Shown: positions 5,921 through 51,309 of the stretch, one piece after another
How positions within the stretch are numbered: the stretch's first letter is position 1
How the letters are laid out: every line of letters starts with the position of its first letter
Program-made: the position numbers and the translations under genes
Source: Marsupella aquatica
Taxonomy: Eukaryota; Plantae; Marchantiophyta
Length of the DNA stretch: 64,000 nucleotides
NCBI GenBank assembly: GCA_973895155.1
Contig: OZ316894.1
Span: 15,182,699-15,246,698 of the forward strand
Direction of reading: 5' to 3'
The notes under the pieces: model-generated
The model's database searches: none
What the model was told of the DNA's origin: nothing
The model's input: only the letters and a program-made list of their open reading frames with translations

Positions 5921-5929
5921 AAGGGGAAG
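5921..5929 (+). promoter_or_regulatory. Polypurine tract
   Basis: AAGGGGAAG immediately before the 3' LTR. Confidence 0.85.
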
Positions 5930-6076
5930 TGTTATAACCCATAATATGACTTAACCCTAGTATAGGATAGGTTAACATTAACCCAACCATGTTAACCCTT
6001 CTGGACTATATAAGTCCTTGGCATAATGGAAGTGAGTGGGGATTATTGACTACTATCATCTTGTGTATTCATAACA
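5930..6076 (+). repeat. 3' LTR (147 bp)
   Basis: Identical to 284-430; followed by TSD ATAAG. Confidence 0.97.
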
Positions 6077-7849: not shown

Positions 7850-8052
7850 CCACCGCGACCCAGCCCCTACCCGGCCCACTCTCGAGCCGATCCCCGACCC
7901 GGCCCCCTACTCAGCCCACTCCCAAGCCAAGCCCCTATCCACCTCCCACCCTGGACCCGGCCCCCTACCCGGCCCACTCCCAAGCCGAGCCCCTAGCTAC
8001 CCACCTCCCACCCCGGACCCGGCCCCCTACCCAGCCCACTCCCGAGCTGAGC
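7850..8052. repeat. C-rich degenerate tandem repeat (~57-61 bp unit), split by the MULE; continues at 18791-18925
   Basis: Repeated CCCGGCCCCCTACCCRGCCCACTCCCRAGCCGAGCCCC..CCACCTCCCACCCCGGA; the unit resumes in register after 18791. Confidence 0.8.
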
Positions 8053-8418
8053 AAGGAATTTTACGGTGCGAGCAAACATGAGTTTTTGCTAGCGAGGCAG
8101 CATTGTTAGCAAGGCACATTTTATGGTCGAATTCACAACACATTACTGGAAAAAATGACCAAATTTCATTGTTTTCCCTCTCTCAAAGTAATGAAAGTGT
8201 TATAACTACGGAAATTCATGCATGATTGTCATATGCTTTCCATACTTGACTCTGTGCACAACGATATTGGTAAACAATAACCGAATAGTAGGCACTTTCA
8301 TGAGAACATGGTCATTCTTTATACATTGAAAGTATGGATATCCAAAAACCGGCACACAGAAAAAACTATAAGAGTCGATGGTAAGCAGTACAGCCAGTTT
8401 AACACTGAAGCTATTGCA

Positions 8419-11400
8419 TTAGTCATAAACCTCATCTTCTGAATCATCAGATATTGAACTTCTATTGGGATCGCTACTGGTCTCCCTCTCAGTAGACTCG
8501 GCAGACTCATCTAAATACTGGCTAACTATCCCCACTTCATTGTCAATAAACCTTGAACAATCCAGATATCTACGAGCTCCTCTGATTGAGCGAAGCCCTT
8601 TCGCCTCCCAGGTCAAGACCACAGGAGCGTCATCAACCTCCTTCGTCGACTTCTCAGCATAGCACGGAAGAGTGAAAGGCTTCTCTGGAGTAACCACGAT
8701 GGATTCCTCCACTTCCTTTCGAAGATAAAATCTCTCCTCAGAAAACCAATCCACCCTCCTATCACTGAAGCAACCACCGGCATCAGTTGAGGAAGAGCAA
8801 CAAAATGAATAAAACAAAAGAAACCAAATTGGGAGTCCGACACCAGAAGAGGCCAAGTACTTTACTCGAGGTCGAATTTGTCTTTCTCGCTTGAAGGTCC
8901 AGCCTGTTCATCTCCTGGTATCGTGAACTCATCATCAGACCCAGCATCCTGATTACCCTTCTTTTCCTGATCTTTAATCATCTTGGACTTGCTAGAGTTC
9001 CAGAACGCTTGTTAAACCTTTCTGAGCACAGGAATGGAGAATGTCCCTGTCCTCAACACCAACAACGAACCGACCGGAGTATTCCCCTGCGGAAAATGAG
9101 CTTCCATCGCACATAGTCCAGTCAAGGACGATATCTCTCGGCTTCATGAGAAACTCCATTACGGCTTGCATGAAGCCAATTGATAGCCTTTTTGATCCAG
9201 CAACGGCCGCTGTTGGACAGGGGACAATCTTTGGGTAATAGACGCTCAACATTGATTTATGCCTGGCATCTTCCAAAGAAGTCAAAGGAACATAAGCAGG
9301 GTCTTTGGGAATTTTTGCATTAAATTCCACTCAACAAAAGACGTATAGAATGAGAGTGCACACTTGAAGGAAGAATGACATTCTATTAGAAAAGCCTGGA
9401 AACTTTGTTAGCGAGATTGCTAGCAAAAATTCAAAGATGGAAATGAACCTTTCAAAGTGAAAATGACAAGATGTTTGTTAGCAACATCGCTAGCATAAAC
9501 CGCATCAAAAATATCTATATAATATGTACCTCAATATCCATATCGGCTCTCCATAAAGGAGTGGATAATAAAATTGTATATTGTTGTACGTGTTTGAATT
9601 TGTTTTTTTGCTCCACCACAGTAAATATTTGCCGCATGTGATTGAAATCCAAGCTATGAAACACAGCCACATATCCTTTGTTCGAAAGCATGGGTCTCAT
9701 GACTCCAAAAAAGTAATAAGGAAGCTTCTCGCTCCACACATTCCAGGACGGGACCTCTTTGTCTGTAATGCATGTTCTATGCCCTGTTGGAAGAGAAATG
9801 AATCCCAAATGTGCTCCAATCCCAGCATATGGCTTGCCGTTAATGATGACAAGGTTTGGGCATTCGACGCTCTTGGACATCCCAGCAATCCATCGATCTC
9901 CATCTCCCATCCAAGATGGCCTTACTTTCTTTACGGTGATAGAATTTGCAGTGTCGGTTAAATTACTGCGAGCAAGGAAATGTCTCTGGCCATCCATCTT
10001 CAACCCACACATCCGAGCGACGCCTGAGCAACTGAAACTTCATCATCGTCCAAATCCGATAGAATCTGGACATTCCTCTTTCGTTTCAGAAGCTTTATAC
10101 TTCCCAAATCCACTGCGCTCTTTGTTGTTACTTCAACATCTGGGGACTGAGGTTCCTCTCCATCATCTGCCCCGCTCTTCAAACTCTCAGAAGCAGTACC
10201 CTTCCTCCTCTCTGTCAAAAAATAGCTATTAAAATCTGTCTCTTCAGAAACACATAAGATCGTGAAAAGAAAATGAAACAAAACATTAACACACTTACTT
10301 GGCTTTCCCGATATTTGGGACCCATCTTTGGATGTGTCTTTCACTGCACCTTTCCTTGGCTTCCTAGACCGACTCCTATCCACTATTGCAGCTACACCAA
10401 GACAAGCCTTTTCCATAGCCTCGCAACCACCAACTTCAGCGTCAGTGGGTGCCAATTTGGACTCCAAGATGTAAGACTCCGGAAGGAATCCACGATTGAT
10501 CATATGAAGAGCGGCTTTCTCTGCAGTGTCAAAGGTGACAGACCACTTGTCTGAGTCCAAATACCATGGACAGTGAAGAATCTCCCACTCGCTCAATCTC
10601 CTCAAAGCCTCACATCCCTCACAAGGAAACATAGAATAATCCCCAAATTTGTCACCTGTAGGATCCTCTTTAACTCCTGCAATCCATGGGGAGAAGCAAG
10701 CTGGGTAGGACCACCAGTAGAATTTGTTTGCTACTTCTCTGTCTACAAAAAATTGATATGTGTATCTCTTTGCTCTCCTTTGGAACAATGCAATCTCGAA
10801 CTTCTCTCATGTCTTGGGAGGCCAAATCTGCTTGAAGAAACGAGTCTTCACACGAGTCTGGAAATCCTCAAAATCCTCCTCAATGTCAAGGATGAGCGAA
10901 GCTTTGGTCTTTTCTGAAGAACTAAGGATCTGGGACTCTGGGACAGTAGGCATAACCTCAGACACAATTTCAGACATGAGGGAAGACGCAATTGACTCGA
11001 CTTGCTCCCACACTGCCCAACGGTGAAGCCAAAGCTTCGTTTCACTATCTGAAAATTGACCAAGATGAAAGAACTTCTTTCGAAGCTCTGGACATACGAC
11101 ACTGCGCTTCCAGGAGTGTACATCGGAGTTCTGGGGATAAGGACATCATCCCTGTGAACAATCGAGCTCGATGAAGACCACAAGAAACATTTCCTCATCC
11201 TTTGTCATCAGTTCTCTGGGCCTCCTTTCTCTCATTCTCGTAGTAGTTATGCATTTCTACACATTTCTTGAAAAAGTCTCCAAATTCTGGATTCAATAAT
11301 GGACCGATCTTAGGAACTTTCACATTCCAATCAGCCAATTGCTCCTTCATCATCTCCCGCATTGCTAAGTCTTGTGAGGCCTTCGACAGGGGCTCCCCTT

Positions 11401-12322
11401 GAGCTTCCTTCAAAGCAAACTTTTTCTTGAGGTCTTTCGTCTGAGATGCAATGTTAGCAGCGGATAAAATATAAGTGCAGGCATCTAGCGTCATGTTCTT
11501 GGAATACCAAGCTGCCTTCCGCACATTTGCCATCTTTTGCTGGAAAAGTTTATAATTCTCAGCATCGATGATATCCTTGTAAACTGACAAGTCATTGTTC
11601 AGAATCTTCTGGACCCGTTTGGCCTCCAAAACCCAGGAGTTTTCAACGTGACATTGTGTCAACCTGCCAGAGAATTTTCATGTTAGCGAGATCGCTAGCA
11701 GGAAGTGATTAACTGAAACACAAATTTTAGGAAAATGTTATACTTAGAAATTGCACCTGTTCAATGCATGCATTGCCAACTCGATCTGAACAAATGAGTT
11801 TTTATCACCCTTAAAAATCTTGCAAACAACTCGTGGATGGTACTTAATATCTTTCGGATGCTCTTCTGCAAGTTGAGTCCAAGAATACAGTCGATGGTTT
11901 CCATCGAAAACAAAGAACATCTTGTCTTTGAGGACGTGGAAAGATACATGGGAATCACATTCGCGTTTGAACTCCTTGTTTTGCAGCACCCAAATGTCAT
12001 CCCAAGTTTCGCGGATCGCATCAGTACACAATTGGAGCTCTCCATCCTCGTTGGTCATCTGTACGTAAAATCGAGGCGCATCTTCAATGTAACCCTGGGT
12101 CCTGAACTCGGACTTCAGTGTGTCTATCGCAGTTGAATCCTTTTGCAGAGATCGAACAATTTGCATGTTCCTCATCCTGCAGAGAGGAATTTGAGGGGGA
12201 GCAAGAGAAAAACCAAACTCATTCACTCCGAAAGAGTAAAGATGATGGTTTATGACAACAGTATAAGGTTCCGAAGCGCTTGGATCAAACACCGATGCCA
12301 CAACATCTACTGTTGTCACCAT
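8419..12322 (-). pseudogene. Spliced MULE cargo gene: N-terminal ParB/Srx-like domain, central helical region, C-terminal beta-class N4C/N6A DNA-methyltransferase-like domain
   Basis: FFVFDGNHRLYSW (ParB-like); MTase motif-I region KPRDIVLDWTMCDGSSFSAGEYSGRFVVGVE; motif-IV position AHLGFISLPTG; RPMLSNKGYVAVFH; GT-AG introns at 11756-11664 and ~9529-9395; in-frame stops (11195, 10807) and a frameshift near 11075. Confidence 0.7.
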
Positions 12323-13144
12323 CTTGGGTCGTCTTGGAGTCTTCAATCCCGATACTAGCACCTTCTTGTTTGCTGTAGACCTTGTTTCTCTTCTAGTCGA
12401 CTCCCTAACTGGAACGATCCTCTGGAAGAAATACTCTCTAGAGACAACGACGACTCCATGAAATAAAACCCTTCGCCAAAGAGTGTACTTTGCTGAAGAG
12501 TGTTCCTGTACAGAGGATGCAACCCCAACACGAGTGACAAACGTCAACAACAATCAGTATCGGATAGCCGTACAGACTGTTACAAAGACCAGTTGAAGTC
12601 CTAAAGAGGTGTAGTCGTGAATACAGAAGACGATATCAAGTCCGAAGAAGGAATAACAGAAATCTCCTGGCGAAATGTTGTACTTTTGGGAAAATGCGAA
12701 GAACAACTCTCACGGTCGGGAGTGTAATCCATACAAAACAGGAGAGGCGTCGGTCGTAGTTTGTACCATTGACATTTTGGTGCCGTTGACTATTCTCAAC
12801 GGAATCCCAACAGTAAAATTGGAGACCGTTGAAATTACTTTTTGGCTAGCAAGATTGTTGGCCTGAAATCCATAGTCTATATCTACATAAAATCTAGTAT
12901 AATCTTTATAAATATATCCATAAAGCGTGTCGTTATATGCTAGCAATCTCGCTAGCATGAGGACTCCGACGATGCAAGTAGTAAAAGACAAAACAATGGT
13001 CACATCAACGGAAACTCTTTGACAATTTGGTCGATGTGTTGTTTCCGTTGGGATGAAATGAGATTAAACCTTCATCATAAGGGTCATGTCGACGATCCTA
13101 AGCATAGTCATCTTCTTTTGTTGTCATTTAAAATTTTGTCTGGG

Positions 13145-16100
13145 ATGATTGAGATGTCTTCCAAAGTCATTTTGCAGCGTAGAATGACGGGAGATGTAGT
13201 TGTGCTTCCTAGCACACCAGGTTCATCGGAGGTGACAGTGATAGAGTCATTCCTTACAACTCGGTTTGGGCTTCTAGATGGTGATATCATCTGCAAGTTG
13301 TTTGAGTTGTATTGTCAAAATGGAACACGTAGTCACGAGTTGAGAGAAGAGAGTAGTACTTCCAACAGGGTTTGGACATTGAAGGTTGGATCTCATGTAG
13401 AGGTTGTGTCGAGTAAAGATGACATTCCTGAAATCATTCTGGACCATGTGGATTCTCCTCCTGAAGAAGAGACTACTCGTGTGATCGATCTGGAAACGCC
13501 TACAAAAGAAATGGCCCCAGATATCATTGAAATATCTCCCGATAGTCTAAGGCAGGACACATCTTGTGGGTCAGCCAAGTCAGGAGGTGGTTCAGAACCC
13601 GGAGGATTGGTCAAGAAAATGGATGTGCTTACCATGCCAATAGTGTATTGGAGTGCTTATGACGCTTTCCTCAATATAAGTGGCGCAAATGAACTTGCAC
13701 AATTTTGAAGAGGGAATTAGTGGAAGGAGTGCCAGGTTCCTAGTCTGCCATCGACATACAATGGTAACGTTGTTTTTGAACTTCCTCCCATCGAAGGGTC
13801 TGGATGCGGAGGAGGTCTTCAAGATATGGATCGAGAGAACGACGGCTATCCATGGACTCAACTTGTCACTACGTCTGCAAACCTGAAGCCAAGGTTCCAT
13901 TGGTCTGTCTCGAAAGTCTGATGTGCTGGAATACTTGAATGCCAGAATTTGGGATGTCGGAAGTTCAAGCATACGAATGAGAAAAATGCTTGCTCGTTTA
14001 GAGGGAAAGGGTTACTGACTGACATCTTCCGTCTTTGGGAGCACGTGAGTGAGGGTGGCATAGTTTGTGGATTCTGTGAAGAGCGGCCGCTTTGTATTCA
14101 AAATTTCCCGGCAAAACTTTTGTACGTGTACCCTAAGCCAGGTTTGGAGAGTCACATTTCAATGCATATGTCCAGGTTGGCTGTGCATATGGGATTCCAT
14201 GACCATTCGGTTTGGAAGGGGAAACCTTGTTCAGCGAGAAAGACTGCGGAAGATGTCGTTTTAGGGGTCCATAGATTGAATCCAGTATCAACTCCAGCAC
14301 GTGTGAGAAACCAGTCGATTGGCAGCCTTGTCTCACTTTTGCATCCGGAATCATCATCTCAGTTGTCAAGAGAAGAACAGATGGAAATCTGGAGTTCCAT
14401 AGGTGTGGTTTCCACTGCTCCCAAGTTCCAAGCTATACTTCGGAGTATCAAGATGGATAATCCCAAAAAAAGAGAACTTGATGCCCTTCGTGAAATGCAG
14501 TCAAGGAATAATTTCCCTTTTGTGCAAAGGTACCTTTTTCCTGGTCAAGGGAATAAGAATGATCGAGCGCATGTATTCCAAATGAGTACAAACGGACCTG
14601 GATCTGGTGTGGACATTTTGAGGAGCATGGAGTTTGGAGGAGTTTTGGAAGGTGCTTGGGTCAGTTTTGACGTGATGCATCGCATCACTACTGGATGGTT
14701 GACATTCAGTGCACATGTTTATGACCACAATTACCGGGCTCTGTGTACAATTTTTACTTGTAAGTTGAGAGCCGAAGATACTGAGTCCCTTGAAACTGCG
14801 TGGCGATTGATGGTAGATGTGGCATCGGAGAATGGAGTGCATAATCCTGTTATTGGAGGATTCATAGCTGACAATGCAGAGGCTGGTTGGATTGCTGTAC
14901 GACAAGTTTTTTTGGTGGTGTTCAAAATCCTATGAAAGAGCACAACGATGCTTTCCATTTTTCTCAGTCCCTGAGGAGACACACATTGGATGGCATCAAG
15001 GAGGGGTGTCATGTAGAGCATTATAAGATGTGGGAGAAGTTAAGGATTGCCCCAACTTACGTCAAAGGGTATAGAATTGCAGACGACATTCAGAAATGGT
15101 GGAAAGAAGGGAATTGTCATCCTTCAAAGCTCAAATCCCTTCAAGGTTGGATTTCATGGTGGGTTGTGCGATGGAGACAATGGGGGAATTTTATTCGAGT
15201 GGTAAGTTTTATCCATCATTTATGATCCATTTAAGCCAGCGAGATTGCTAGCCTAAATATCGTTGTTTTAACCCTGGCTAGTCTGTAACTAGTGTGCTTT
15301 CTACTAGCAAGGTTGCTAGCCTGAATACCACTAACATTGATTCTATGGCAGACACAAACTGCAAAAGAGTTTGCCTTGATGCCAAACTGCGCGGGGTCTG
15401 AATCTTCTCATGCTTCAATGCGATCGTGCCAACCGAAGAAGAGAATTGGTTTGATGGAAGCATGTGAAGTTGATCAGAATAGAGCAGTTGGACAGATTGC
15501 TCCGTTCACTGCGTATATGGAAGGATGTCATCGTGGTAATGGTCCTACAATATTTGAGCTGGCCTATCGCAATGCAGATACTACGGGATCGTTGGATGCC
15601 TACGAGAAGGCCATCCAATCTACTATTTGAATCCTTTGGAAAGTATGAGTTCTATAGAATAGAGCCTTTACATGGGGATATTTGGACAATGTCAGGAAAA
15701 CAGAAGGGTAATGCTTCCGCGTCTATTCATGAGAATGATTCTCATCGACATGATAAAATATTGCGTACAATGACTCTCCGTCAAGCTTGAAAAGAAGGAA
15801 TCTGTACGCTGAATTCAGTAGTTTCAGAACTGGTTCTGACCTTGGGGGACCGTCATGTATTCCTCATAATGAAAACAGTCCCACCCGCCAGACATATGCT
15901 CTCCCTCGTGAAGTTATCAATATCTCAGATGATGGTGAAGAACAAAGCCTTGGAACAGATGTAGAAGGAACACCGATTACAAATGATCTTGGAGAAATAC
16001 CATCTCCTCAAAATAGTCAGGATCGGATTTGGGATGCCCCCCGAAAGATCCCTTTCATTGAAGAGGTTGATGTTTTGTATGGGACCTGGCATTTGAGACA

Positions 16101-16839
16101 AAGTGGGAAAGGGAGTGGACCCGTGTGCAACGGACTAGTGGATCGGAGTGTCTTTGGTAGAGAAGAATGCCGTAATCTGATCAAGGAAACTGGATATAAG
16201 GCGTTCCGGACTGGAGTTGTTGGTGTGGCCATTCACGGATTGAGGTTGTCCTCCCCACATCGTCAGCTTCTGTACTTCTGTCCGAATAATAAGTGCCATA
16301 AAACAGGTGGAAGAAGGACTCTTGCCCAACTTTCGCAACCACCTGAGGCACTGCAAGTCCAACAAGGAACTAGGCTGACCCCTGAAGAGATTGATTTTCT
16401 CCTTCAAAATGGCTTTCAAATCAGAGGGTTATCATACTCTGATGCGACGCCAATCAGGTCATTCTCTCCTGCAAGTCGTCTTGACCTCTGAATTGATGTG
16501 AACGCCTTCCCCGAAAGGGTTGACATTGCTTATCCAAATTGTTGATTGAAGACTCGAAATGGGAAAGGCGTTCAACAACGTTTCTAGAACACCCCTGAGC
16601 TTCTCAAACGCATTTGATCTGCAACTGTCGAACAAATGAGAGTCATTGGAAGTGACAAGATTTGCACAGGAAACGGATGGGGATGGCAATATTTCATCGC
16701 TACTCACGAGAGTGACTCTAGAATTGCACACAACTACTGGATTCAAGTGTGCTGCTTCCCTTGTTGCTCTTGTGATGACTTCTACAAGAGGCACACGCAA
16801 GGAAGACCCTACATGTCTTGTAAACATCTCTTAATCTAG
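13145..16839 (+). pseudogene. MULE transposase with GCM/WRKY-like N-terminal Zn domain, DDE core and SWIM finger; disrupted
   Basis: CAGILECQNLGC...CGFC...HMGFHDH (GCM-like); FDVMHR, FIADNAEAGWIAVRQVF, AFHFSQS, GSESSH (D-D-xxH-E); YWIQVCCFPCCSCDDF...CKH (SWIM); stops at 13706, 13718, 13918 and a frameshift near 14910. Confidence 0.85.
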
Positions 16840-17432
16840 AGAGAGACAATCTTGTGAAACAGCCAATTCTGACTGTTGGTGAACTGAGGAGTTTGATTCC
16901 GTTACACAGTAGTTGAGTCCATCTCTTTTATCCGTTAAGGTGGACGTTTAAGAGTACCTGTTTTTGTCGCATTCCAGGTTTCAAAACCTGAACAATGGAT
17001 ACTTTCCGAGTAATAAGAATGTTGATGGTATGTTAGCGAGGATCTTCTGCATATTAAGTGTGGGTCCTAAATGTTGCCTATTTTAACTAGCGATGTCGCT
17101 AACAATTAACAACACATACAAAGATGTAATTCAACCGAACTTCTGTGAAAGTTTAACATACATGGAGTGATTGCATGCCATCCACAACAAAAATCACTCA
17201 AGTACCGGTAGGCAATATTTACTAGCGATCTCGCTAGCAAGGTATGCACTCATGAAATTGAAAAAACTTTCGAAGCTTTATTCAGATATGTGTCCAATCT
17301 TTATCAAAACATCTGTAACTGACAAAATGTTCGTGTCCTACCGATCATTTCATTGTAAGGTCACGGACTTGACAGAGATTAACTTTAAAACTATGGGGGT
17401 TCGCAACGCGGAGTGTTTGTCTAGGGTACTAT

Positions 17433-18159
17433 TCATGGAGATGCTGCCTTGTAGGCGTCTGAATCTGTGTCCAAATCCGTATCATAATCGGACGAAGCTA
17501 GGATGTCGGATGTCCAGTAGTTGTGTATGTCGATGTCCCTCCAGTAAGACTCCTCCTCCTCTCTCTTCCGCTTCTTTGAAACTCCCTTAGAAACGGATAC
17601 GTTTGTGCAAGAAGACATCGGTGGTCTGGAAACAATGCTTGAGCTTGAAGTTGTTTCCTTCGGCGGTGCAGGTCGCTGAGTTGAAGCACAGACAACAAGC
17701 GGTACCCGACTGGATGCTGATCCAGTCTTGAGCGGAGGGGGTACACTCTTCCTTGCCGGAGGAGAGCTTGGTGGCGAGTCCAATGGGCCGTCAGTTTTGG
17801 CGTTGTATCGGCGGACCTCCACAACCCATTTGGCTTTTGGAGCGGAAGAGTCATCGTTCTTTGCCATTTCTGTCTATAACAAACGCTGCTATGTATCATA
17901 TTACTTTCTCAACATGTGTTTACCAAATAGAAATAGTCACCTTCAAAACATCCAAGCTCATCGAGTCAAAACGCGCAAAACTACGAGAAGGAAAATAGAA
18001 CTGGGAAAACCAGACTTTCTCATTAACAATAACGCTACTTGCTGTGAAGAGGTCTCCAGGTATCGAACTTACCTCTCCTTGTGTGACAAAAACTTTGCGA
18101 TAATGCGACACACTCGAGAACACCAGATCCCCTCCTCGCCCGTGGATATGACAACACAA
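17433..18159 (-). CDS. Third MULE-internal gene of unknown function (probably two exons; S/P-rich, KKRKR NLS-like motif, acidic tail)
   Basis: ORFs 17920-18159 and 17433-17867 separated by a short AT-rich intron-like gap; convergent with the transposase. Confidence 0.35.
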
Positions 18160-19432
18160 GCTCGATTGAAGTTACTCTGCGATGCGAAGACGATCGCGAA
18201 AGAGTGAGGAGACGATGAAAGTCAGATAATGAGAACACTGTTAGGGAACACTGTTAGGAATGGAGATGAGTTGAAAGGTCCGAATGACATATAGTGCATT
18301 TCGGGAGCCTCGGATCCTCTGAAACGGTTTCGAGTTTCACGCTTCACTCATGAGGAAGGGGACATTGGATTCTGTCGTGATATGATCCGGTGTAGTGCTG
18401 TTGCTGCAACCGTTAACACCCGTGCTTTCTAATGAGTGCTTTTCGTGTGGGTCATGACCGCACGAAGTATTTCGTGCGAGAATGATGGGCAGAGTTATGG
18501 CTAGCGACTTCGCTGGCCTGATGTACGTTGGAATTATATATTGAATTATGGTGCCATCGATGACCGTTCGTGTCAGGGGAATACGTAATATGTACCAATC
18601 CATGGTCGGGATCGCTTTTAAAACCCAACGGGAGTGAAATAAATAGGTGGAATAGAAGGTTCCTTTTAGGCTAGCGAGAGTCACTTTATGCTAGCGAGGT
18701 TGTTTTTGTGCCAAATTTTGGGTATTCCAAGGAGAAAATGATCCCGTGCGAGGAATTTTTTTACTGTTTCCTCGCACGCTACAATGACCCGAGCTGAGCC
18801 CCGATCCACCTCCCACCCCGGACCCTACCCGGACCCAAACCGGCTCCCGAACCGGCCCGGCCCTCCTCCGACCCTCCCCTGACCCGGCTCCCCTACCCCC
18901 GGACCCCAGCCGGACTGCTCCCGAAGGTTGACGGCTTGCCAATTTGACGCTGTTTTTCGACCCATTTGACGGGCAAGATCAAACCGGCATTAAAACTTAC
19001 AGCTGGGAGTCCAATCAATGGATAATCGATAGACATCGACAAGGACCATAATAATTGCTCATCACATGGACCTTAAAGGATACGAAAGGAAGACCGGTGC
19101 TTTTTCCAAGTGAGAAAGCTTGTGAATCTTGGCTTTCGCCAGGACAGGGAAGCTTGATGAAGTGGATGTGAAGCTCAAAAGATTGGAAGGTTGCTAGGAC
19201 ATGGGTCGCTCTCGTGTGGCAGGTGGTGCTCGACCATTACGTTTTCAATTATGATCTGATGTATCTATTTTAAAGACAAAGCGCTGCAGTGCTTTAGAGT
19301 CCGTTGAAATTTATCCAGTTCATTCGATGGCAGAAGCTGACCTCCGCGAATTGGCGCTGAAATTCTCAACTGTCTACCAGTGACCAGTGGTTGTGGTTGT
19401 GGAAACCTTGTATCTATTGTAGAGAAGTGATC

Positions 19433-23968: not shown

Positions 23969-23989
23969 TAATCAAGTGGGCGTTAGTAT

Positions 23990-24560: not shown

Positions 24561-24744
24561 AAATTTTGATTTATATTTTCACTTAAGGTACTATTGAACC
24601 ATTCCACAAGGAGTTGGGTGTTGGAGTCTAAGTGTTTAGGTAGTCAAGTTCTACAATTATCTCTGACAAACAATACAAGACATAAGTTATTGAGTGTGTT
24701 ATTCATGATTGATAATTGAAGGGGGAAAAGGTTCAATAAAACAT

Positions 24745-26950
24745 AATCACCTGACAGTCTATCTTGGCCACATATATGGGAACAAACATGACAACGTTAT
24801 GCGTACATATGCACTAGAATCTTTTGGATTCTTGATAAGCAACAATGACTTGAGACATGGGATAGTACTCACTATTGTGCAGAATTGTGATGACCCCATC
24901 GTCTGATAAAAAAGGGTGCATGGATTTGAAAAAAGATCTAGCCATAGAGTGATCTGGTGTGTTCCATTTTGGAACTTTCTTGTCAAGGATCGTCGGTTGG
25001 AACCCCGTTGGAAGGTAAATGAAGCCCTCATCGACTCCAAACAATCTTTCTTTTCCTCCCTCAACGATGCCATTTTCTTTGTATCCCTAAACCCTAAATC
25101 CTTCCACCACTTCTCGACATTATTCACCCAATCTGGCTTCTCCTATTTGTTAAAAATTGAGTCAAAGAATTCAAAGATGCTTGACTCAACCATACAATGC
25201 AGAGACATTGTACTCTTGAAGTTCCCAACTTCACATTGGAGACCATTGGCAGCAACACTCTCTCTTGAAGAAGGTCCACTTTCCACAACCCTCTTTCTCT
25301 TCTTTCTAGTATTTGTTGCATCTATGGGAACAATCAAGTTCCCTTTATTGACAGGAGTAATGGGGTCGGATCAAGCTCCCATATTTGCTTCAGAAACTTC
25401 AGGGGTAGCATCCACCTTAGCTTCTCCGGTTCCCGCAGTATTTGACTTCCTCCCTCCTAAAGCAAGAGTACAATGTCACACTCAAAAGATCATCTTCACA
25501 AGGTTTACAAAACACTAGCGCCAGGCGCTAACCAAATTAGGAGCCCCATATATCTTGCAACTGTAAGAGAATTGCAACAGACAAAAGACCACCAAGTAGG
25601 AGTTGCTTCAGAAGACATCCTATAATAGCGCCAAACACTGGCCAACTCAACAATAAAAATACTCACGTTTCCTCCCCTTAGTTGACTCGTTGGGTGCTGC
25701 CAACTCTGCTTTCCCTTTGCGGCTATGGTCAACGTGGACATTAGTGGTTTCATAGATGGTTTTTGATTCAGTGGCCGACTTTTAACATCGTCAAAAAGAC
25801 CCTCCTTCATGTCAGAAACAATTTTGGGCTTCAAAAGCTTATGGAATGCATCCTTTTTCCGTCTGATCAAAAGCTGAATCACATCTATCTGTATCAAAAG
25901 ACCATGGACAATGAGTTCTCTCCCATTCTGTCAAAGGTCTCAGTGGAAAAATTCCCTCCGCGGGGTACATTGAATACAAATCAGCCACAACATCATCCTT
26001 AGATATGATAGCCCACTTCATAAAAGCTGCGGGATATGCCCAAAAGTAATATGGTTTTGTTACTTCCATCTGGATGTAGAAGCGGTAGAGATACCTTTTT
26101 GTCTGCTTCTGATTCTTGAGAGTGTAGTCCTCTTTATTAGGATACTTTGATGGCCACATAGTGTGAAAAAACTTACTCTTCACTGCATCGCCATACTTTT
26201 TGAAATCGTTGTGACAACATCAACGAGATCATCAAAGGAATCACAGTTCCACTCTTGCAACTGACTCCCGAGAATGGTTTGTTGTACTTCTCAAAGAGAA
26301 TACTATAACATTCCAATAGCAATTCCCTCCACATTATTCCAAGTGATCCAAGTGTGACACCATTGTTTCACTGGGTTGACGCTAAAAGGATGGAAAAACT
26401 GCCTACAAAGCTTTGGATTACAATGTGCCACAAGGAATGTACTCCTCAACTTTGGATCAAGTGCAAAAACTGCAGTGAGCAATTGGGTGCGGTCCATTGT
26501 ACACAACACCATGTTGGGCTTCTTCTCTCTTTTGTTTCTCTCTGTGATAGCATACATTTCCGCACATGTACTCAAGAAATCTTCAAATTCTGGACTTAGC
26601 AAGGGTGTGATTTTTGAAGTCTTCATTGCCCACTCTTTGGTCGTATCCTTCATCATTAACGCATTTGGAAATCTCCTCCACTAACCAGGGACTCCCTTGG
26701 GCCGTGGCAGACTCCATGTCAAGCTTGAATTGGTGCGAATAAAACTTTATCTTATTCTCACATAAAATGTAAATAAGAGATTCCTGTGGCATCTTCTTCG
26801 TATACCATGACCCCTTCCGCATCTTAAGCCAAATGTTCTCAAACTTCTTGAAATTAGCAGGGTCAATCAGCTTACTATAATACTCCAGGTCATGAGTCAA
26901 AGTCCTTTTGATTCTATCCACATCTAGAATCCAGGAGGGTTTGGCCCAAG
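24745..26950 (-). pseudogene. Second, truncated copy of the ParB-MTase-like cargo gene (family 2)
   Basis: Collinear protein similarity to 8419-12322: SWILDVDRI/SWVLEAKRV, YYFWAYPAAF/FYWWSYPACF, LRPLTEWERTHCPW/LRRLSEWEILHCPW, GFIYLPTG..VPKWN/GFISLPTG..VPSWN. Confidence 0.8.
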
Positions 26951-29559
26951 GTGGATGGTGGTCTTGGACTGAAGGAATTTTGCAGCCATTCAAATGCATT
27001 ACTAAGCAAGTGGTTCAATGGAGCATTAGATCAGGAGGCTGTGGTCACAGATAAACTTACTACTGACAAAATGGCGTAACTTTAAGACTATGTAGAAGTC
27101 ACTACTCACTGCAAGATAAATTACTTTTGAGCACCCCTTGTTCCTTTGGTAAGCTCACCTATACTAGATAGACTTGGAGTGCATGGGAGCAGGTGAGGAG
27201 ACATTCAATTTTTTGCCTAAATACTAGTGCCATCCCGGGGCACTAGGGAGTGGAAGACTTGCTCCAATGTTTACACAGATTCTGTTTTCTTTCTGAAAGC
27301 ATGAAGGCATAAGTTGTTATGGTCTATGGCAGGTTAGGGATGAGGAAAGTCCATAACTTCTGGTCTGCACCCAACCTCAATGGAAGTGCCTCACCAACAA
27401 GATAGTGGTGGACCTTGCCACCAGTGCCCTCACCAATCCCAACACTCACGCCTAAGTGCCCTTGGTGCCCAAACGCCTCCACGGAATACCTCAAGCAAGT
27501 AACCTAGTGCCCCTTGCACCGCCAGTGGCCCCTCCCATACGAAGCCGCACTTGCTCTCTAACACGACCGCTACTAAACGGTCCTCCCTATCTGCACAAGC
27601 AACCAAACACCTCGGTAAGTAACCCTTTAGGATCTAGAACTCGCCAAGTCTAGCATCCTAACTCAAGCTCAACAGACGTTGGTAAATAGGTCAACGATAG
27701 GTCCTCCCGATGCCATAAGCCGGAACCAGAACCCACGCCCACTGTTCGCCCAGAACAGTTCCTTCCTTGGGCGCAGCCCGGGTTCCCCCTCGTACCTATC
27801 CATCACCAACTGACCGCCCTGACCTCAGGACATGCTCATGGCCCAAATAGCGTAGCTTGTCCTAAAGCTTGTCCCAAGCTTGTTCCAACACGCCGGGACC
27901 AGAACGGCCCCGACTCTAGCAACCGCTCCCGGTTTGCCCCACTGGTGGTCTAGGGGCCGAGCACATTTGGAACTCAGCCTCCGCACCTACTTGGCCTTTC
28001 CTCCCCAATGCAAGCTCCCTTGGGAGACTGAACGCGGCTTGGCTGCTGTTCGGCAGGATTTGGCAAGCGGGCGAGCTAACACCCGCAAACCACGAGAACC
28101 CACGGCACCCCCAGACCCAGATGAGATCAGGAAGACGTAGCCCTCCTCAAGAGCTTTCCAACGCACCCACGAAGTCCTCCAACGGACTTCCCATTGGGAA
28201 GATATCGCCAATTCTGTTTGGCGGTTTCCCTTAGTGTCGCGACCGCCGCGGCTCACGACTTCGGCTCGGCCTTAGCCCCCAGGGAGACACCACTCCCCTC
28301 ATATATGTTTCTGGAGACCTGCCACCCCCGGACCAGCTTTGGTCCCTAAACATTTGGACCCCAACCCGGATCCCATCGCGCATAAGGGGCGCGCCAAGAA
28401 CTGGCAACGCCCATAACTTTCTTGATAGGCATCCGCAAGCGGAGTGCCTTAGCCCGTTGTGACCGGGCCGACCCAGTGCTCATGCCTAGGCCGTCAGGTC
28501 TGATCGCCGGTCGGGGCCCCCGATCGGCCCAACCCGGATCGGGCCACAACTTGCGCCCCAAGCGTCCGTTGCCAATGGCGTCAACTCCATTGGCCTTGGG
28601 CCCAAGAGGAGCTCACTCCCAAGCCCTCAGAACTCAAATTCCATCCGAAGGTCCGGACAGCCATCCTTGAGCCCGGCCCATTTCCCCTTGACCTGACCAG
28701 CCATAGGCTAGTCCAAGTCCTTAGTGTGTGTTGGGGCTTGGCTCCTTTCCTCGCTAGTGCCACGTCTCATCGCCCACAAGTCTCCCCATGCTAAGTCCTC
28801 CCCGGATGGCCTATTCGGGCCTGGACCATAAGGGAGCTCGGCGTCGAAGTCAGCGACGCCGGAGCTAAGTGTTAAGGTAGTCGAGTTCCGCGACTAAGAT
28901 GCACAGGCTGCGTGGATTAACCAAGGCTAATAGGACCTATTGCTTGGCCTTTTTTGATGCAATTCAAAGAACTGTATATCATGGGAACAATCTGGATTCA
29001 TCTGCTAGGAAGTGGCGGAGTAAAGCTACATCATCAGTTATCAGTGTTTTTCATCAATCAACCTGATATCAGTCGGCACATCATCTCAGAGAAGCCGCCA
29101 AGTTGGGGTGCCAAAAAAAATTGCAAAAAAAAATGAATTTTTTTTCTCAAAATTTGATGGAGAAAAAAACTTTTAAAAAAAAAATTCACTATGGGTTTCG
29201 TACCATACGGATACCACATCTCGGCAAGACCCGTTGAGACAGACAGGTGTCCGTACGGTACGGTATGGTACGGTCACATAATTTTGTCGGAAGTTTTTCA
29301 GGTTTTTTTTTTAATTTTTCAAATATAAAGAAATTTTCCCATTTTTATTTGTCCTTACGCCGATCTTGGCGAGGTCAACTGAGATTGAGTCAATCTCAGC
29401 TGCCCCAGCTGAGATGCGCAAAAGTGCGAAGGCCCTATCTCAGTTGCTCAGTTGAGATTCAAAAGTTTCAAGGCGGCAAAACTGATAACTGATGATCCTC
29501 GCTACCCCCAACAGGCGCTGGAATGATGTGGATTCTTAGATTAAATCATTTGCCTTACC

Positions 29560-30513
29560 GAATCATAATCTACAATTTATTTGCGCACAAAGGGCACACA
29601 TTCTCCCAGACTCAACAGGATCTGGGATGTTTCCCTGTCTATTTCTGAATGGAGTGAGGGCTTGGCAGATACTGTGGATCTCTGACCTATCCTCCAGGGC
29701 TAAAACCTTTATATGGAGGATTATCGCTCAGGGTCTCTTTTCCGGATCAAGAGCATTTAGGATTGCAAAGTCTGATGGGCTATGTGTGCTAAGATGTGGA
29801 GTAGTGGAGACCATTCCACATATTTTCTTTCAATGCCGACATGCACTTAACTGCTGGAATGAGGTTAGTGGATGGCTCAATGGACAGCTTACAGGCCAGC
29901 CTGTGACTATTATTGGCCTTCTACTTCTTCTAAACGCTACGCGCTTTTTTGATATACAAGATTCTTCGTTGCCTTTGGCTAGCACGGAACGGCCAAACCT
30001 TTGACCTAGCCCTAAAGCATGTCTTCAATCCAATTTCAGCTTTTTGTGAGACTTTAGATCATTTGTCTGTTGTTGCTACTACATCAGGCTCTAGCCGGGA
30101 ACATACTTGATTGGTTGGGTGTTGTTTCTCTCTTGGAAGAAGAACGAGATAGGATTTTGAGAACTGGTGCTAGGCAGATAGAATCTTTATGACAAATCAG
30201 GACCTGATGCAGCGATACTTAGTTAGATTTAGAGGTCATATCTGAACTCTATCACCTGTCCTTGTTGATCTGCCTGAATGAGGTTGACAAGGCTAAAGAA
30301 TTGCACAATAGTGACCCTTGCTGATGACAGTTCTTGACTGAGTTGCGTGTCTTATCTGGTCTATTGACCTTGACTTACAACTCATTGAACTTGTCTTTCT
30401 CTTATGATCTTTATGATCTTTTTTGACCTCTTTGAGGAGCGTTGCTTTTTGGCCTGCTTGGTCCCCCATCTATGGGGCCCCGCAAAATAAATGAAATTAA
30501 AAATTAAAAAAAA
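29560..30513 (+). mobile_element. 5'-truncated L1-type LINE (zf-RVT region and A-rich tail)
   Basis: WQILW..RAKTFIWRI..CVLRCGVVETIPHIFFQC; A-rich end at ~30484-30513. Confidence 0.75.
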
Positions 30514-30799
30514 CCAGGAGGGTTTGACAATGGCTTGTCCTAGCCTACAGGAAGAAACACAGTTTATTAGGAAAAAACAAGGAGCAATCTACAAGTAGCG
30601 TTAGGCAATCTTAAAACTAAGACACAGAGATTTAAGAAGACAATGGAGATCAAAGACAACTTACTCGTTGATGGTGTGCATCGCCACTTCAATTTCAATC
30701 AGAGATCCCTTGTCTCCCTTAAATATTGTATAGAGCACACACAGGCGGTATTTTGGATTTTTGGGGGTTCTCCTTTGTGATTAGTGTCCATGAGTACAA

Positions 30800-31030
30800 T
30801 CGGTGATTTCCATCAAAATTTGAGAACATTTTATCCTTCTAAATGGCAAAATCTAGATTTGCCTCACATGTGGCCTCAAACTTCTTGTTCTCCAATTGCC
30901 ATATTGGATCCCAACTAACATAAATCTCCTGCATACAGATCAAAATCAATCCATCCTTGTCCGTTGGCTGAACATAAAACCTCATTCCTATGGATGAGTT
31001 GTAACCCATGCACGAAAAGAGTCTTTTAGC
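30800..31030 (-). pseudogene. Highly decayed Copia-like RT remnant
   Basis: Minus strand gives frameshifted MGYNSS..FYV..GLIL..LYAGDL, resembling the LYVDDL region. Confidence 0.3.
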
Positions 31031-31849
31031 TTTTCAATGGAAGAGTTGTCTTTCTACAGTGTGCGGACCACCTCCATGTGAATGAATCGACAGAGAGGAA
31101 TCCTAGGCGGCTCCTTGTCAAAACCACAAGAATTATTCCCAAAAGACATGACATTTTTGGAAATGAGACCAATCTCTGCTAGCGCACACTCTACAACATC
31201 TTGAATTGCAAATGTGTCAAGTTCTCCATCTTTCTGCGCAACGGCTTGGGAACTGAAACGCAACTAACAGAGATGGGAGGAAGCAACTTTGTAGACCTTT
31301 TTACACGATGTGTATACACTGAACCACTAAACAAAGTTGCAACAATTTGGAATGAGCCCAAGTGTCTTGATCTGCAACTACACTATACCCTTTGGTCGAA
31401 GATGGGAATACCTCCATTGACTTCATTGAAGAATTGTACAAACTGTTGTACATTGAAATTATGAAACTTGACTTCCTCTCAAAAGTACCGTATGTGTGTT
31501 ATATTCTAGAAGGAGTGGGATGTTCAGCAAAACATTTTGGTTAAAGTCTTGATTTAGTATGTTTGGCCAAACCCAATGTCTTTGATTGGAGAACTCATTT
31601 ATCTAAATCAAGAGGAAGTAGAGGCATAAGTAACACATGACTCATAAGTTACCGTTAAATATTACCATTATGATACCTTTGGTCCACTCGACAGGAATTT
31701 TAGCATTGGGCACTATTATAAAGTTGGACGTTATAGATGAAAAATTAAGATTGTCCTAAAGATAGTGCCAGGAGCGTAAAAATATGTTAAAGATAATTAC
31801 ATGTAATGGTTTTTTCAAGTAAATGAATTCACCTTAAACCTACCAATTA

Positions 31850-39765: not shown

Positions 39766-39811
39766 TACTCAACAATGTCAGCCGCAATGGACTTGTAATG
39801 TGTAGAGGAAT

Positions 39812-40041: not shown

Positions 40042-40376
40042 GGGTTTTCACCGTGACAGCATATAGCAAACAGATTTACTGTTACAAGCAAAACTTTTCC
40101 TGTTACGAGCAAAAATTTACTATTACGAGCAAACTAGACAATCTAAAAATGTGTCATTAAAAGTCACAATTTTCAAAATAATTTAAAACATGACAATTTT
40201 TTGCTAGTGTAAGGCGATACTATTACTAGCTCCGGGCGCTAGCCAAAACATATTGACTCACAAAAAAAAATTAATATTTTTTCCCCAAAAAAAAATTCCA
40301 AAAAAAATTCCAAAAATTTTACCACCCGTTTGCTGTTACGAGTAACTATTTGTTGTTTGCTGTCACGGTGGTTATA
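40042..40376. mobile_element. Mutator-type MITE related to MULE family 2
   Basis: Inverted CACCGTGACAGCA / TGCTGTCACGGTG near the ends; flanking direct repeat ACCATTGTGA (40032-40041 and 40376-40385; TSD 8-10 bp); central family-2 palindrome at 40225-40243. Confidence 0.75.
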
Positions 40377-47167: not shown

Positions 47168-48811
47168 GGAATGACCACCAGATTTAGGGACTCACTTTTC
47201 TCGCACCCATACCACTTTAGTTAGGATATAGGGAAGGTTACTTACCTTTGGTCAAAGGTGTAAGGCCATCAAGCTAAGAGAAGTAAGTATAGGGGGTAGT
47301 TTACTTAGGGTAGTAAAATAAGGCCAACTTTGACTAAGCATAACTTGAGACTCACTCACTCTTTTTGAGAGCTTTCAAGTGGGTTGGAAATCTGGTGAAG
47401 AGGACCATAAGTGGGAGCAACTCAAGTGTGGCATATTCTAGGGCTTGGAGGAGTCAAAACAGCAGGTTGTAGAGTGGGCTATGAAGTATAGATTTGGACT
47501 TTGTGTGTTAGGAGGACTTGGGAGAGGTGTATTTTGACCCCAGGTTGAGTTTGGTGTGGTTTGGAAGGAGAATAGTATATAATGAGAAAGTTTTCCTTTG
47601 TTAGGGACCAGAATTCTCAGTTCTCGAAGTAGAGGCTCTACCTTGCTAAGTTGGGGCTAAGTTTGAGAAGGAGATGAGGTTCATACTTAGTGTGAGGATT
47701 TTATAGAAGATCTTTTGTTGTAAGGATTGAGTATGCAATGAAAAGAGTCTTCCAATCTTCATTGTGACCATTAAGTGTGAGAGAATTTGAAGTGTATGAG
47801 GGCAAGAGAAGAGTCCATATTTGGGTGCAATCTTGGTCTAAGCTTGAAGGGGATGTGCTGGTACACAACCAAGGTCAGGGAGGCAAGGCTAAGGTGGAGC
47901 ACTACTTTGGGACTTAGAGAGGATTGTATCTTGAGGATAGAAAGTACCTTGCCTTGAGTGAGAACAAGAGGGAAGAGTCCTTAGAGAGAAGAGTTGTCTC
48001 TAAGAGCTCAAGGCAGGGTACTCTTTGACAGTTATTGAGGAGAGAAAGGATGTGGGAGGGGGAGAGGGAGTGCAAGAGCTCAGGTGATGGTCCCTTGGGG
48101 CTTTGCAGGGTCAAGGTGTGATTGCACAATGCTATTGGGAGGGGAGCATTTTAATTTTTCCCTTCCCTTTTTTGGGGAATTTACAAACGACAGCAAATAG
48201 ATAACAGTAACAGCAAACAGTTACTGTTATCAGCTAAAAGAAACTGTTACCAATGAATAGTGTTTGGCTAGCAGTGAACAGTGATCATGAAAAAAGGGGA
48301 CGAAAGGTGCATTTCAAACTACTGGTATAGAAAGTAAGACGACCAAACTTGCGTGAAAGGAAATTGGACAAAACGGAGACATGAATTTCACAATTGAGAT
48401 AAACAAAATCTGAGACCAATATATGTCAAAATGCCCAAGGAGAAAAGAAAATTGTCATATATAATCACAAAGTACAAAACGTGCTCAGCGTAGGTCCTAA
48501 AAATGCAGTTATAAGTTAAAACTTGGAGGCCTAGAAATCCGATATACAAAAGCCACGGTCGATCCCGACTGAGGATTGCCAATAAAACATAAGCAGCGCT
48601 CGGCGCTAGCCAACCATTGAATGAAAAACTATGTGTTTCCTGAAGACAACAACCGGGAAAACCCTAACAACTAAGCCAAGGTTGACTCCGTCCCAAAACA
48701 TCGAAAAGAGCATAAGCAGTGCTCGGCGCTAGCTTAAAGTGATCACCAAATTGAACAATGCTACATCGTTCTTCGTGCAAAACTATAGGAACAACAAATA
48801 CGACTTTGTAT

Positions 48812-49300
48812 CTAGTTTTCAGAGTTGCAATCATCCTCCACTCCTATCGCTTCTCTCCTCCAATCTTTCTTGAATCCAAGACCACGCCATCGAATGTATC
48901 TCTCAAAAGGTCCCCGATGCACTGCCCTCATAAAACCTCCATTTGGAATATTACTGTCCTTAAAGTCAACTTGCCCAAACATTTCTTGCACTCTCCTATT
49001 GATTGGCAGTACACCATCAATAGGAACAGCCTGATGAGACGAGAACCTACTTGCAAATGGGAGTGGAGGAGAATTGACAATCCACGGGATGTTCTTCTCT
49101 CCAGGACTAATAGCCTCATCATACGGTAGAGCATGAAGGTTCCAAAAAGTAGAGGTTTTAGTCTCTTCAGTCTCCATCTGTGACTCAAAAGAGCTGAAAT
49201 GGCTCTCTTTCGGACGCACACGAGAAGGAAGGAATGCTGCCTCCCAATCCATGAGCTCACCGTTTCTCACCATGTTGAATAGAGCCCAATCAAATGTCAA
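48812..49300 (-). CDS. Hypothetical protein inside MULE family 2
   Basis: 162-codon ORF with protein-like composition, flanked by family-2 palindromes; no recognised domain. Confidence 0.3.
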   Translation of the reverse strand: MTFDWALFNMVRNGELMDWEAAFLPSRVRPKESHFSSFESQMETEETKTSTFWNLHALPYDEAISPGEKNIPWIVNSPPLPFASRFSSHQAVPIDGVLPINRRVQEMFGQVDFKDSNIPNGGFMRAVHRGPFERYIRWRGLGFKKDWRREAIGVEDDCNSEN

Positions 49301-49859
49301 CTTCCCCTCTCACAAAATGCAAAAAGTGTCGCCCGCAAAAGGTCCAAAATCTATCGTCCGCAAAAGGTCCGCAAACGATCGTCGGTCCAAAAACTGTCGA
49401 CCGCAAAAATTGTTGCCCGCAAAACGTCCCCAAGCTGTTGTCGGTCCAAAAACTGTCTTCAACAAGAGGACCAAAAATGTCATCCGCAAAAGGTTTGAAA
49501 GTTTGGGGTATCCACTAGCACTTACAGTCCATGTGGGGTTTCCTTTGGCAAACTAACGGACACAAACCAAATGGCCGTTGGTATCCAAAACGTATAATAT
49601 ACTCTTTATTGCCTACTATTTGTCTCATTATGAAGACCGTTGGTAGGACACGACAAAGACCAAACGGCCATGACACACCAATAAAAGCGGGAAATATTTG
49701 CTTTATGAATCACCATTTGGCGAGCACCAGGCGCTTGTAAAAAACACAAGTAATGAGACATCAATTTATAAGGACCCTCAACAGAGGAACTGAATACAAG
49801 TTGGTACTAGCGTCGGGCGCTGCTAAAACATTTCACCTAAACTTCTTCAATATGTGTCA

Positions 49860-51309
49860 CAATTCTGAAGATTTTGATTCGGAACCAAAATCTGTACTTT
49901 GGGATTTGTCCGTGGACACAGCCTCATCATCTACGTACTGGCTACAGGAGAAGTCATCAACATAAGGATGTTTAATGAACTTCCTGTCAACACCCCTTCG
50001 TAACCAAAGACCTTTGTTTTCCCAGCAAAGCGTCCTGGTACTCTCGGCTTTCCTTGCGGCTTTCTCTACATAGGAGGGAAGAACAAAAGGTTTTTCTGGT
50101 GTTTCTATGTTGTGTCTAGCAACCCTCCTTCACAGTTTGAAACGTCTCCTCGCATTCCGCTCTGACCTGATGAAACAAAATCCAGCACGTTAGGTGCCTT
50201 TCGCCAGAACAACACAAAAATGGTACAAATTGACGGGAATGGAGAAAGAAGCTTACGAGTTTATGAACATTACTCGGAAGAGTCATCACTATCGGTTTTG
50301 TCCACGCCTCCACGAGGCTCTTCCTTTTCCTCCTCCGAGTCCCCTGTACCTTGTTCCTCTCCACCTTCATTGGACTCATCATCAAAATCAAAATTGAGAA
50401 CCAACCGAAGCTTATCTCGCTTCTTTCTGTCGGCAGTAGGAACAGGTGGAGGTAAAACCACAATCTCTTTGGGAGACAACAAATCCATAAAAACCTTTGA
50501 AGGAGTTTCAATAAATTCTTTTCTATGTTCTATCCCGAGTACAAACCGCCCGGAGAAGTCTCTAGCAATGAAGGAGCTTCCAGCCCCAGCAGTCCAATCC
50601 ATAAAAATATCACAAGGTCGGCTGACAAGCTCGATCACAAATTGAAATAAACCCGACAGACAGGCGAGCATTTCCAGCAAACTCCATTTGCGGGAATGGA
50701 TCGGATTTGAGAGAAGGGAGTCCGATCAAATTGGTGACCAAGGGTCCTCATTGATGGAGATTGGACGGAATTTAGGGTCTTTGGAAATTTTACGTTTCCC
50801 ATTAATTCGACCAAATATGTCCAGTCTGAGGGTAAACATCTGCCGAAAGCAATCCGAAGTGTCAAATGGCAATTCCGGGTTACACAAGTTTTAACTCAAA
50901 ATGGGAAATAGTAAAGAGTAGATAATTACCTGATGGTCTGTCTTTGCCGCGTACGTGGGGACAGACATTACAACATTATGCATGCATATACATTGGAATC
51001 TTCTTGACTCCTGACAGGCAGCAATGACTTGAGACATGAGATTGTACTCCCCATTGTGTAGAATTGCAAGGAACCCATCATCTGATAAAAATGGATCCAT
51101 GGATTTGAAAAAAGATCTAGCCATGGAGTGATCTGGAATGTTCCATTTAGGAACCTTCTTATCTATGATCGCTGGTTTGAACCCGGTCAGTAGGTAAATG
51201 AAGCCCGCATCCACTCCAAACAATCTTTTTTTTCCGCCCCACACAACACTTTTCTCTTTATATCCCGACTTAACGAGATCCTTCCCCCACCTCTCCACAT
51301 TACTAACCC
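49860..51309 (-). pseudogene. Third copy of the cargo gene: MTase-like domain and C-terminus
   Basis: GVDAGFIYLLTG, DPFLSDDGFLAILH, SRPCDIFMDWTAGAGSSFIARDFSGRFVLGIE, TPEKPFVLPSYVEK, SQYVDDEA; DNA-level similarity to 24745-25130. Confidence 0.8.

Follow-up and report, generated by a model that had tools for sequence, protein, structure and literature searches.

This report concerns E1, a Mutator-like DNA transposon in a 64-kb window of the Marsupella aquatica genome (contig OZ316894.1, positions 15,182,699 to 15,246,698; the window is the whole stretch that was analyzed, numbered from its first letter), and an 18-bp palindrome that occurs ten times within it.

Element E1 and its genes

E1 is 10.7 kb long, and its short, degenerate terminal inverted repeats are in register with a 9-bp target duplication, GAGCTGAGC, present at both sides. 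The transposase gene lies on the plus strand, an accessory gene diverges from it on the minus strand, and there is possibly a short third gene. Both the transposase and the accessory gene are broken in this copy. The features are as follows.

8044..8052, plus strand: left target-site duplication, 9 bp
8053..18790, no strand: E1, defective copy of a Mutator-like DNA transposon whose terminal inverted repeats are short and degenerate (9-bp duplication, alignable ends, multi-copy family)
8420..12780, minus strand: accessory gene with a ParB-N fold, a Noc/ParB-like helical domain and a degenerate N4/N6 methyltransferase (all as predicted); frameshifts and stops, ends approximate
13147..16840, plus strand: transposase with a GCM-like N-terminal domain, Mutator-type D, D, DxxH, E residues and a SWIM-like finger; broken, ends approximate
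17433..18253, minus strand: possible third gene, short and low-complexity, gene model uncertain; no Pfam match
18791..18799, plus strand: right target-site duplication, 9 bp

The insertion target is a GC-rich 62-bp tandem repeat (7837-8052, 18792-18900). We read the D, D, DxxH and E residues and the SWIM-like finger of the transposase by eye in an alignment. Mutator-like elements (MULEs) have target duplications of 9 to 11 bp, terminal inverted repeats that are long or degenerate, and a DDE transposase with C/DxxH, a WRKY-GCM1-type N-terminal domain and a SWIM finger. Pfam gave no MULE match for any of the 11 transposase family members scanned, and the atlas hints only weakly at a GCM-like N-terminus (score, 0.90; 12% of the cluster carries GCM), so E1 is assigned to this group by its 9-bp duplication and by these residues. 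Five longer transposase relatives are 26 to 52% identical. A Pfam scan of 17 open reading frame (ORF) pieces of the window yielded nothing useful. Contigs from 4 of 4 public sequencing runs cover all 30 bins, with many divergent pieces and 310 to 2613 contigs per run, and E1 thus belongs to a multi-copy family, in three coded organisms. The element ends also carry short repeats: four of the eight window matches to GTGCGAG are at E1, all within 320 bp of its ends, and five of the six matches to CTGTTAC are at family-2 ends. These terminal repeats are distinct from the palindrome and would therefore offer the transposase sites of its own.

A HMMER library search with the ParB-like ORF of the window returned 231 relatives at E values up to 0.001, with named accessory-protein relatives in Riccia sorocarpa and the fern Adiantum, as would suit a non-seed land plant host; a homology search with the same ORF among longer proteins gave 0 of 795 candidates. 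One of the Riccia proteins, P0158, is full-length (1207 aa) and can be aligned along the accessory gene of E1. A preliminary description of this locus had called the accessory protein ParB-like, and models of its relatives agree with this. The P0045 model matches the Caulobacter ParB N-terminal domain with a Z score of 8.9 and a root mean square deviation (rmsd) of 2.3 Å over 99 residues, and ParB and Noc entries are among the top nine rows of its structure search. The DGNHR box is present in the window ORF and conserved in about 70 of 77 alignment rows. Behind this fold, the helical domain of P0040 (residues 137-348) superposes on residues 125-230 of Noc in the Noc-DNA complex 7ol9, with a middling Z score of 5.8 (rmsd, 3.2 Å; 106 residues). 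Domain order and coverage fit the ParB/Noc architecture. From these models of relatives we predict for the accessory protein a ParB N-terminal fold and, behind it, a domain similar in shape to the DNA-binding domain of Noc. Other comparisons added little. Searches of PDB sequences found nothing meaningful, and hhalign against 27 bacterial ParB proteins found no match even for the N-terminal domain and is hence uninformative on the helix-turn-helix. In a block scan, the expected place gave the best score for only 2 of 9 blocks.

The C-terminal part resembles a DNA methyltransferase. Relatives P0158 and P0159 match Pfam N6_N4_Mtase (PF01555) at E values of 1e-5 to 5e-5, just under the cut-off, and this domain is named on several Riccia proteins. 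The catalytic motif comes first and the S-adenosylmethionine (SAM)-binding motif second. In beta-class N4C/N6A methyltransferases, the canonical catalytic motif is (D/N/S)PP(Y/F/W), and the aromatic residue of the DPPY type stacks on the base. In E1 and nearly all close relatives that cover it, the motif is D/S-L/M-P-T/S-G, which is not canonical and is missing the aromatic residue, while the SAM-binding motif is kept. Two more distant relatives have an aromatic residue or a second proline-aromatic pair at this place (DVPF, DFPI). With the SAM motif kept and the catalytic aromatic gone, a role of the tail as reader or scaffold is more likely than ordinary DNA methylation.

Palindromes in the non-coding intervals of E1

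The palindrome, motif 1, is GYTAGCRA-NN-TYGCTARC. Searching the window with the pattern GYTAGCRANNTYGCTARC and allowing up to two mismatches gave 10 matches: four exact, five with one mismatch and one with two. Shuffled sequences contained 0.06 copies on average and one at most, and none of 100 shuffles reached 10, which rejects chance as the origin. The sites are listed below; full copies have no strand.

8088..8112, plus strand: two lone half-sites (8088, 8105), within the left end of E1
9407..9424: copy 1, accessory-gene intron
9477..9494: copy 2, same intron as copy 1
11682..11699: copy 3, intron behind the ParB-N exon; on the sense strand it overlaps a CTAAC that resembles a branch point
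12845..12862: copy 4, divergent promoter region
12939..12956: copy 5, divergent promoter region
15235..15252: copy 6, transposase intron; position matches the first variant site of a related locus, L001
15303..15320: copy 7, transposase intron
17032..17039, plus strand: lone half-site, intergenic
17086..17103: copy 8, intergenic
17221..17238: copy 9, intergenic
18500..18517: copy 10, upstream of the third ORF
18670..18697, plus strand: two lone half-sites (18670, 18690), near the right end of E1

No full copy lies outside 8053-18790 anywhere in the 64 kb. All ten copies are in non-coding intervals, which make up 24% of E1 (P ~5e-7); we drew these intervals from ORFs, homology and splice sites placed by eye, with splice coordinates good to a few bases. 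Avoidance of exons on account of the TAG in the motif is rejected as an explanation, since TAG ends translation in one reading frame and not in the other two. Exact half-sites are concentrated in the same way, with 22 of the window's 27 inside E1 (P = 3e-13, not independent of the full sites). When the half-site core was held fixed and the spacer varied, nine matches fell at one spacing and at most four at each of 14 others. The copies stand singly or in pairs 68 to 135 bp apart, and the clusters recur every 1.2 to 2.3 kb across E1 from end to end. All full sites are internal, the closest lying 270 bp from an element end. The preliminary description had thus placed the ten copies correctly, and its claims that they are restricted to introns, the divergent promoter and intergenic gaps and are absent from the neighboring host gene hold. 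That gene (19800-24000) is intron-rich and contains no full palindrome; by eye it resembles a ycf45/SpoIIIAA-type AAA ATPase. The half-sites reported near the termini (8088, 18670, 18690) were recovered; the earlier list had omitted those at 8105 and 17032.

What kind of site is this? The flanks of the ten copies are unrelated, with a mean best identity of 35% and a maximum of 54% over 45 pairs, and a tandem-repeat check of the window found no array covering any motif 1 site. The copies are therefore not debris of tandem repeats or miniature inverted-repeat transposable elements, and a tandem-repeat origin is rejected. Positions A4, C6 and A8 are invariant in 20 of 20 half-sites. The half-site contains a conserved CpG, and its decay is one-sided: G7 is changed to A in eight half-sites and C6 to T in none (two-sided binomial ~0.008, calculated by hand). 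Neutral deamination does not predict such an 8:0 ratio, which points to selection on motif 1. In family contigs covering the transposase intron, variants restore the palindrome where E1 deviates from it, at 15237, 15246 and 15303.

We then considered whether the palindrome acts in RNA. As RNA hairpins the 18-mers reach -10 kcal/mol at best. The five intronic copies, read on the transcribed strand, deviate by six mismatches and two G-U pairs; since mismatches dominate, RNA pairing is not maintained. There is also no Rfam match for the palindromes. We reject the hairpin on these two grounds, and a double-stranded DNA site is the more likely form of the element. The copy at 11682 overlaps a branch-point-like CTAAC about 20 nt ahead of an acceptor, but 5 of the 10 sites are outside introns, and a branch point fails as a general explanation. 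Prokaryote genomes contained the exact site in 88 stretches versus about 139 expected, and no locus among those listed had two, so there is no sign of a prokaryotic site with this sequence. Viral contigs gave 32 pattern matches, none of them a relative. Taken together, the data confirm motif 1 as a real, family-specific cis element.

Sister elements and the protein that may bind

Two related elements, E2 and E3, lie farther along the window, and neither has motif 1. They and a small non-autonomous element carry motif 2, a 19-bp variant, CTAGCGCC-N-GGCGCTAG.

24742..31263, minus strand: E2, a second ParB-methyltransferase gene in fragments (24742-27014, 30640-31263), broken up by other repeats
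25514..25532, no strand: motif 2 copy, 19 bp, in a part of E2 that appears to be non-coding
40042..40376, no strand: 335-bp non-autonomous element with a 9-bp duplication, CCATTGTGA, and E3-related ends; motif 2 at 40225 and a degenerate copy at 40202
48174..51315, minus strand: E3, a third ParB-methyltransferase element, represented here by its left end and its methyltransferase half; motif 2 at 48592, 48715, 49720 and 49806

E3 resumes at 56050-56206, beyond a long terminal repeat (LTR)-type insertion. With up to three mismatches, the motif 2 core TAGCGCC-N-GGCGCTA has seven matches versus 0.63 expected, six of them in E2, E3 or the small element; this pattern was chosen after reading the sequence, and its P values are optimistic. 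The copies at 48592 and 48715 have about 10 bp of flank in common. As an independent test, we fetched nine related loci by transposase homology, and an unbiased palindrome scan of one of them, L001, found three copies of GCTAGCGC-NN-GCGCTAGC in the equivalent transposase intron. The first is at the position of the E1 copy at 15235, in an intron that is otherwise diverged and longer. The motifs of E1, the sister elements and L001 have the outer GCTAGCG in common and vary in the inner base and spacer, and the C6-to-T change occurs in the variants. The palindrome had been claimed to be family-restricted; in one window and one contig, motif 1 is found only in E1, and the sister elements carry variants. 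This pattern supports the idea that related families have different palindromes, as a co-evolving protein and site would be expected to show.

Our best explanation, which we put at a probability of roughly 0.6, is that the ten palindromes are family-specific, parS-like docking sites for the ParB-type accessory protein of the same transposon, serving self-recognition or anti-silencing. ParB and Noc dimers read the two half-sites of parS and of the Noc-binding site (NBS) (PMC7383237). A dimer of the accessory protein would dock on the double-stranded palindrome, with one GCTAGCRA half-site per subunit. Nucleotide binding would close the clamp, which may spread along E1; ParB-fold proteins bind CTP, ATP or GTP, and the nucleotide is not predictable from sequence (PMC12704722). 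With sites in nearly every larger non-coding gap, the protein could occupy the whole element, and an element coated in this way might resist host silencing, be regulated or be licensed for transposition. The preliminary description had proposed such cognate loading sites; the family-restricted cis element, the ParB-like fold with a DNA-binding-like domain and the variant palindromes in relatives argue for the proposal and carry it part of the way.

Several results weigh against it. The superposition on Noc ranked third of 178 chains, and the tool warns that a Z score below about 13 for a helical domain can reflect a common arrangement. A Noc-type domain was absent from the top 50 of a wide VIA structure search with the P0040 model, and Foldseek gave no E value below 0.001 for the accessory-protein models; the output of both searches with P0040 was dominated by generic helical hairpins. 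The models themselves are of Riccia relatives about 30% identical to the broken E1 protein. In the family contigs, variable positions number 3 or 6 of 32 in the sites, versus 14 of 50 between sites and 17 of 90 over all non-motif positions, and conservation of the sites relative to neighboring intron is not significant (Fisher p 0.05 to 0.43, depending on the way of counting). A TAGC-type palindrome was not found in eight of the nine related loci; these eight are more distant and mostly short or decayed. L001 is a 2-kb locus with a transposase only and so carries no information on which protein the motif follows. In L009 a ParB-like gene diverges from the transposase gene, and no palindrome reaches three exact copies. 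Half-sites lie close to both E1 termini, as expected of transposase sites. In L009, which is moss-like and decayed, we observed inverted repeats of the type ATTCCAT...ATGGAAT in apparently non-coding parts (1676-1700, 12895-13005); these may be a site of its own and were not significant in the scan.

The terminal half-sites are one reason to consider that a transposase dimer binds the palindromes through its GCM-like N-terminal domain, for self-activation or regulation or for assembly of a transposition complex. That N-terminus resembles, as a weak lead, the DNA-binding domains of GCM/FAR1 type; in the case of AtMu1, the transposase by itself binds cognate copies and activates them (10.64898/2026.08.24.746577); the small non-autonomous element has kept motif 2; and L001 ties the motif to the transposase gene. 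However, AtMu1 binding is at the terminal repeats (10.64898/2026.08.24.746577), and here the ten full sites are internal, the E1 ends have distinct short repeats of their own, and the terminal half-sites show no mirror symmetry about E1. An element-encoded ParB/Noc-like domain is also a simpler fit to two-fold symmetric sites of 16 to 18 bp (PMC7383237). We consider binding by the transposase unlikely, but the main alternative. In a variant of the docking model, the ParB part docks and an active enzyme places N4-methylcytosine or N6-methyladenine within the site or next to it. The N6_N4_Mtase match in relatives, the invariant A, C and A, the CpG cytosine that never decays in motif 1 and the DVPF and DFPI motifs of the two distant relatives would suit this, and the same idea has been proposed for Ectocarpus (PMC12477816). 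The catalytic motif without its base-stacking aromatic in E1 and nearly all close relatives, and the C6-to-T change in the variant motifs, speak against it, and we regard it as improbable.

The weakest candidates are a host factor, hairpins or splice signals, and neutral relics of internal duplication. The CTAAC overlap at 11682, the folding energies of the 18-mers and the common flank of two motif 2 copies could each be cited in their favor. Against them stand the five sites outside introns, the decayed RNA pairing without an Rfam match, and the unrelated flanks of motif 1; a motif that differs between families of one genome also disfavors a conserved host factor. We give these hardly any credence, and docking of the ParB-type protein is the reading we keep.

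Other repeats surround the sister elements. Inverted repeats of about 300 bp, 80% alike (24266-24563, 41121-41417), enclose 17 kb with apparently permuted pieces of the E2 gene; the E2 motif-IV exon is just within one arm, and just within the other is a weak match to the last methyltransferase exon (40571-40732). At 39276-39766, about 11 units of 40 bp contain another spaced palindrome, ATCTTGG-N9-CCAAGAT, which also occurs outside the array at 38032 and 29362. Short repeats like GTCGCCCGCAAAAGGT occupy 49320-49494 of E3, between an ORF (48815-49309) and the methyltransferase exon. Two LTR-type element copies (42508-47167, 51310-56048) are 85% identical and have no Pfam match; the second interrupts E3. 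Toward the window's ends are a Copia LTR retrotransposon (281-6076) with a 1545-aa open frame, whose 150-bp direct repeats are 100% identical and hence indicate a very recent insertion, and a row of a PHD-finger ORF, a BRCT ORF and a CACTA-type transposase-associated domain (59711-63998), possibly CACTA cargo.

Comparison with known systems

One of the closest known systems is from a brown alga. The accessory protein of Ectocarpus Sola1-1_Ec32, like that of E1 when the two are compared by description, has a ParB-like domain and an N4/N6 DNA methyltransferase, is about 1100 aa long and is encoded on the strand opposite the transposase; it was proposed to bind and modify its own transposon (PMC12477816). 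That element belongs to the Sola superfamily; the main text of the paper does not contain "palindrom", and its consulted passages give no binding site (PMC12477816). PAG3 of Bostrychia Plavaka is likewise an accessory gene of ParB-like type carried by a eukaryotic DNA transposon; inverted repeats lie next to it, and self-binding was proposed (10.1101/2025.02.11.637652). In contrast to E1, it is from a red alga and the Plavaka lineage, its ParB is fused to a 2-oxoglutarate (2OG) oxygenase, the methylase is a separate gene, and its repeats are tandem arrays beside one gene rather than dispersed single palindromes (10.1101/2025.02.11.637652). In red algae, such ParB-fusion accessory genes move among transposon superfamilies and adjoin inverted-repeat arrays (10.1101/2025.02.11.637652). 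Methylases fused to ParB-HTH occur in chlorophytes and chytrids (PMC4738411), and the listing of other MULE accessory ORFs in PMC6446971 has none of ParB type. ParB-fusion transposon proteins and self-binding have thus already been proposed for algae, in two 2025 genome papers whose consulted sections name no binding site (PMC12477816, 10.1101/2025.02.11.637652); the variant palindromes in sister elements are new here. Our literature search, which covered few subscription journals and no supplements (the algal ones may detail repeats), found no land-plant MULE bearing ParB and no defined site. The present locus provides a candidate site of defined sequence, variants from three families that could be exchanged in swap experiments, and access to a land-plant lineage that has tractable relatives.

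Bacterial ParB-parS and Noc-NBS resemble E1 in having a multi-copy palindrome of similar length and an N-terminal GxxR fold; the helical domain behind this fold binds DNA in the bacterial proteins and may do so in that of E1, and in bacteria a few base changes in the half-site switch specificity (PMC7383237, PMC12704722). E1 differs in its site sequence, its 2-bp or odd spacer, GNHR rather than GERR, large insertions in the helical domain and a fused methyltransferase; no parA was seen, and the carrier is a eukaryotic transposon. A bolder idea is that land-plant Mutator-like transposons took over a complete bacterial-type ParB-parS switch, in which an NTP-gated sliding clamp would load at dispersed, family-specific palindromes and cover all of the element, a methyltransferase-like domain would mark the element or block silencing, and site and protein would diverge together; we hold this only tentatively, with the odds somewhat against it.

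The preliminary description had also likened the sites to VANC targets. Arabidopsis VANDAL/VANC is, like E1, a Mutator-like element with accessory genes and family-specific motifs in introns and intergenic parts (PMC5735166). The analogy stands for placement and family specificity and fails on anatomy: a VANC motif spans about 9 bp, and tandem repeats have multiplied it in a single orientation (PMC5735166), whereas E1 has dispersed 18-bp palindromes with unrelated flanks and a ParB-type protein. The Pfam scan of the 17 ORF pieces detected no VANC-family match. VANDAL/VANC has been described as the only transposon system known to bind its own sequence and modify it (10.1101/2025.02.11.637652). 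If the ParB-type protein does dock on its palindromes, E1 would represent a second, unrelated system of transposon self-recognition and possibly a ParB clamp on eukaryotic chromatin.

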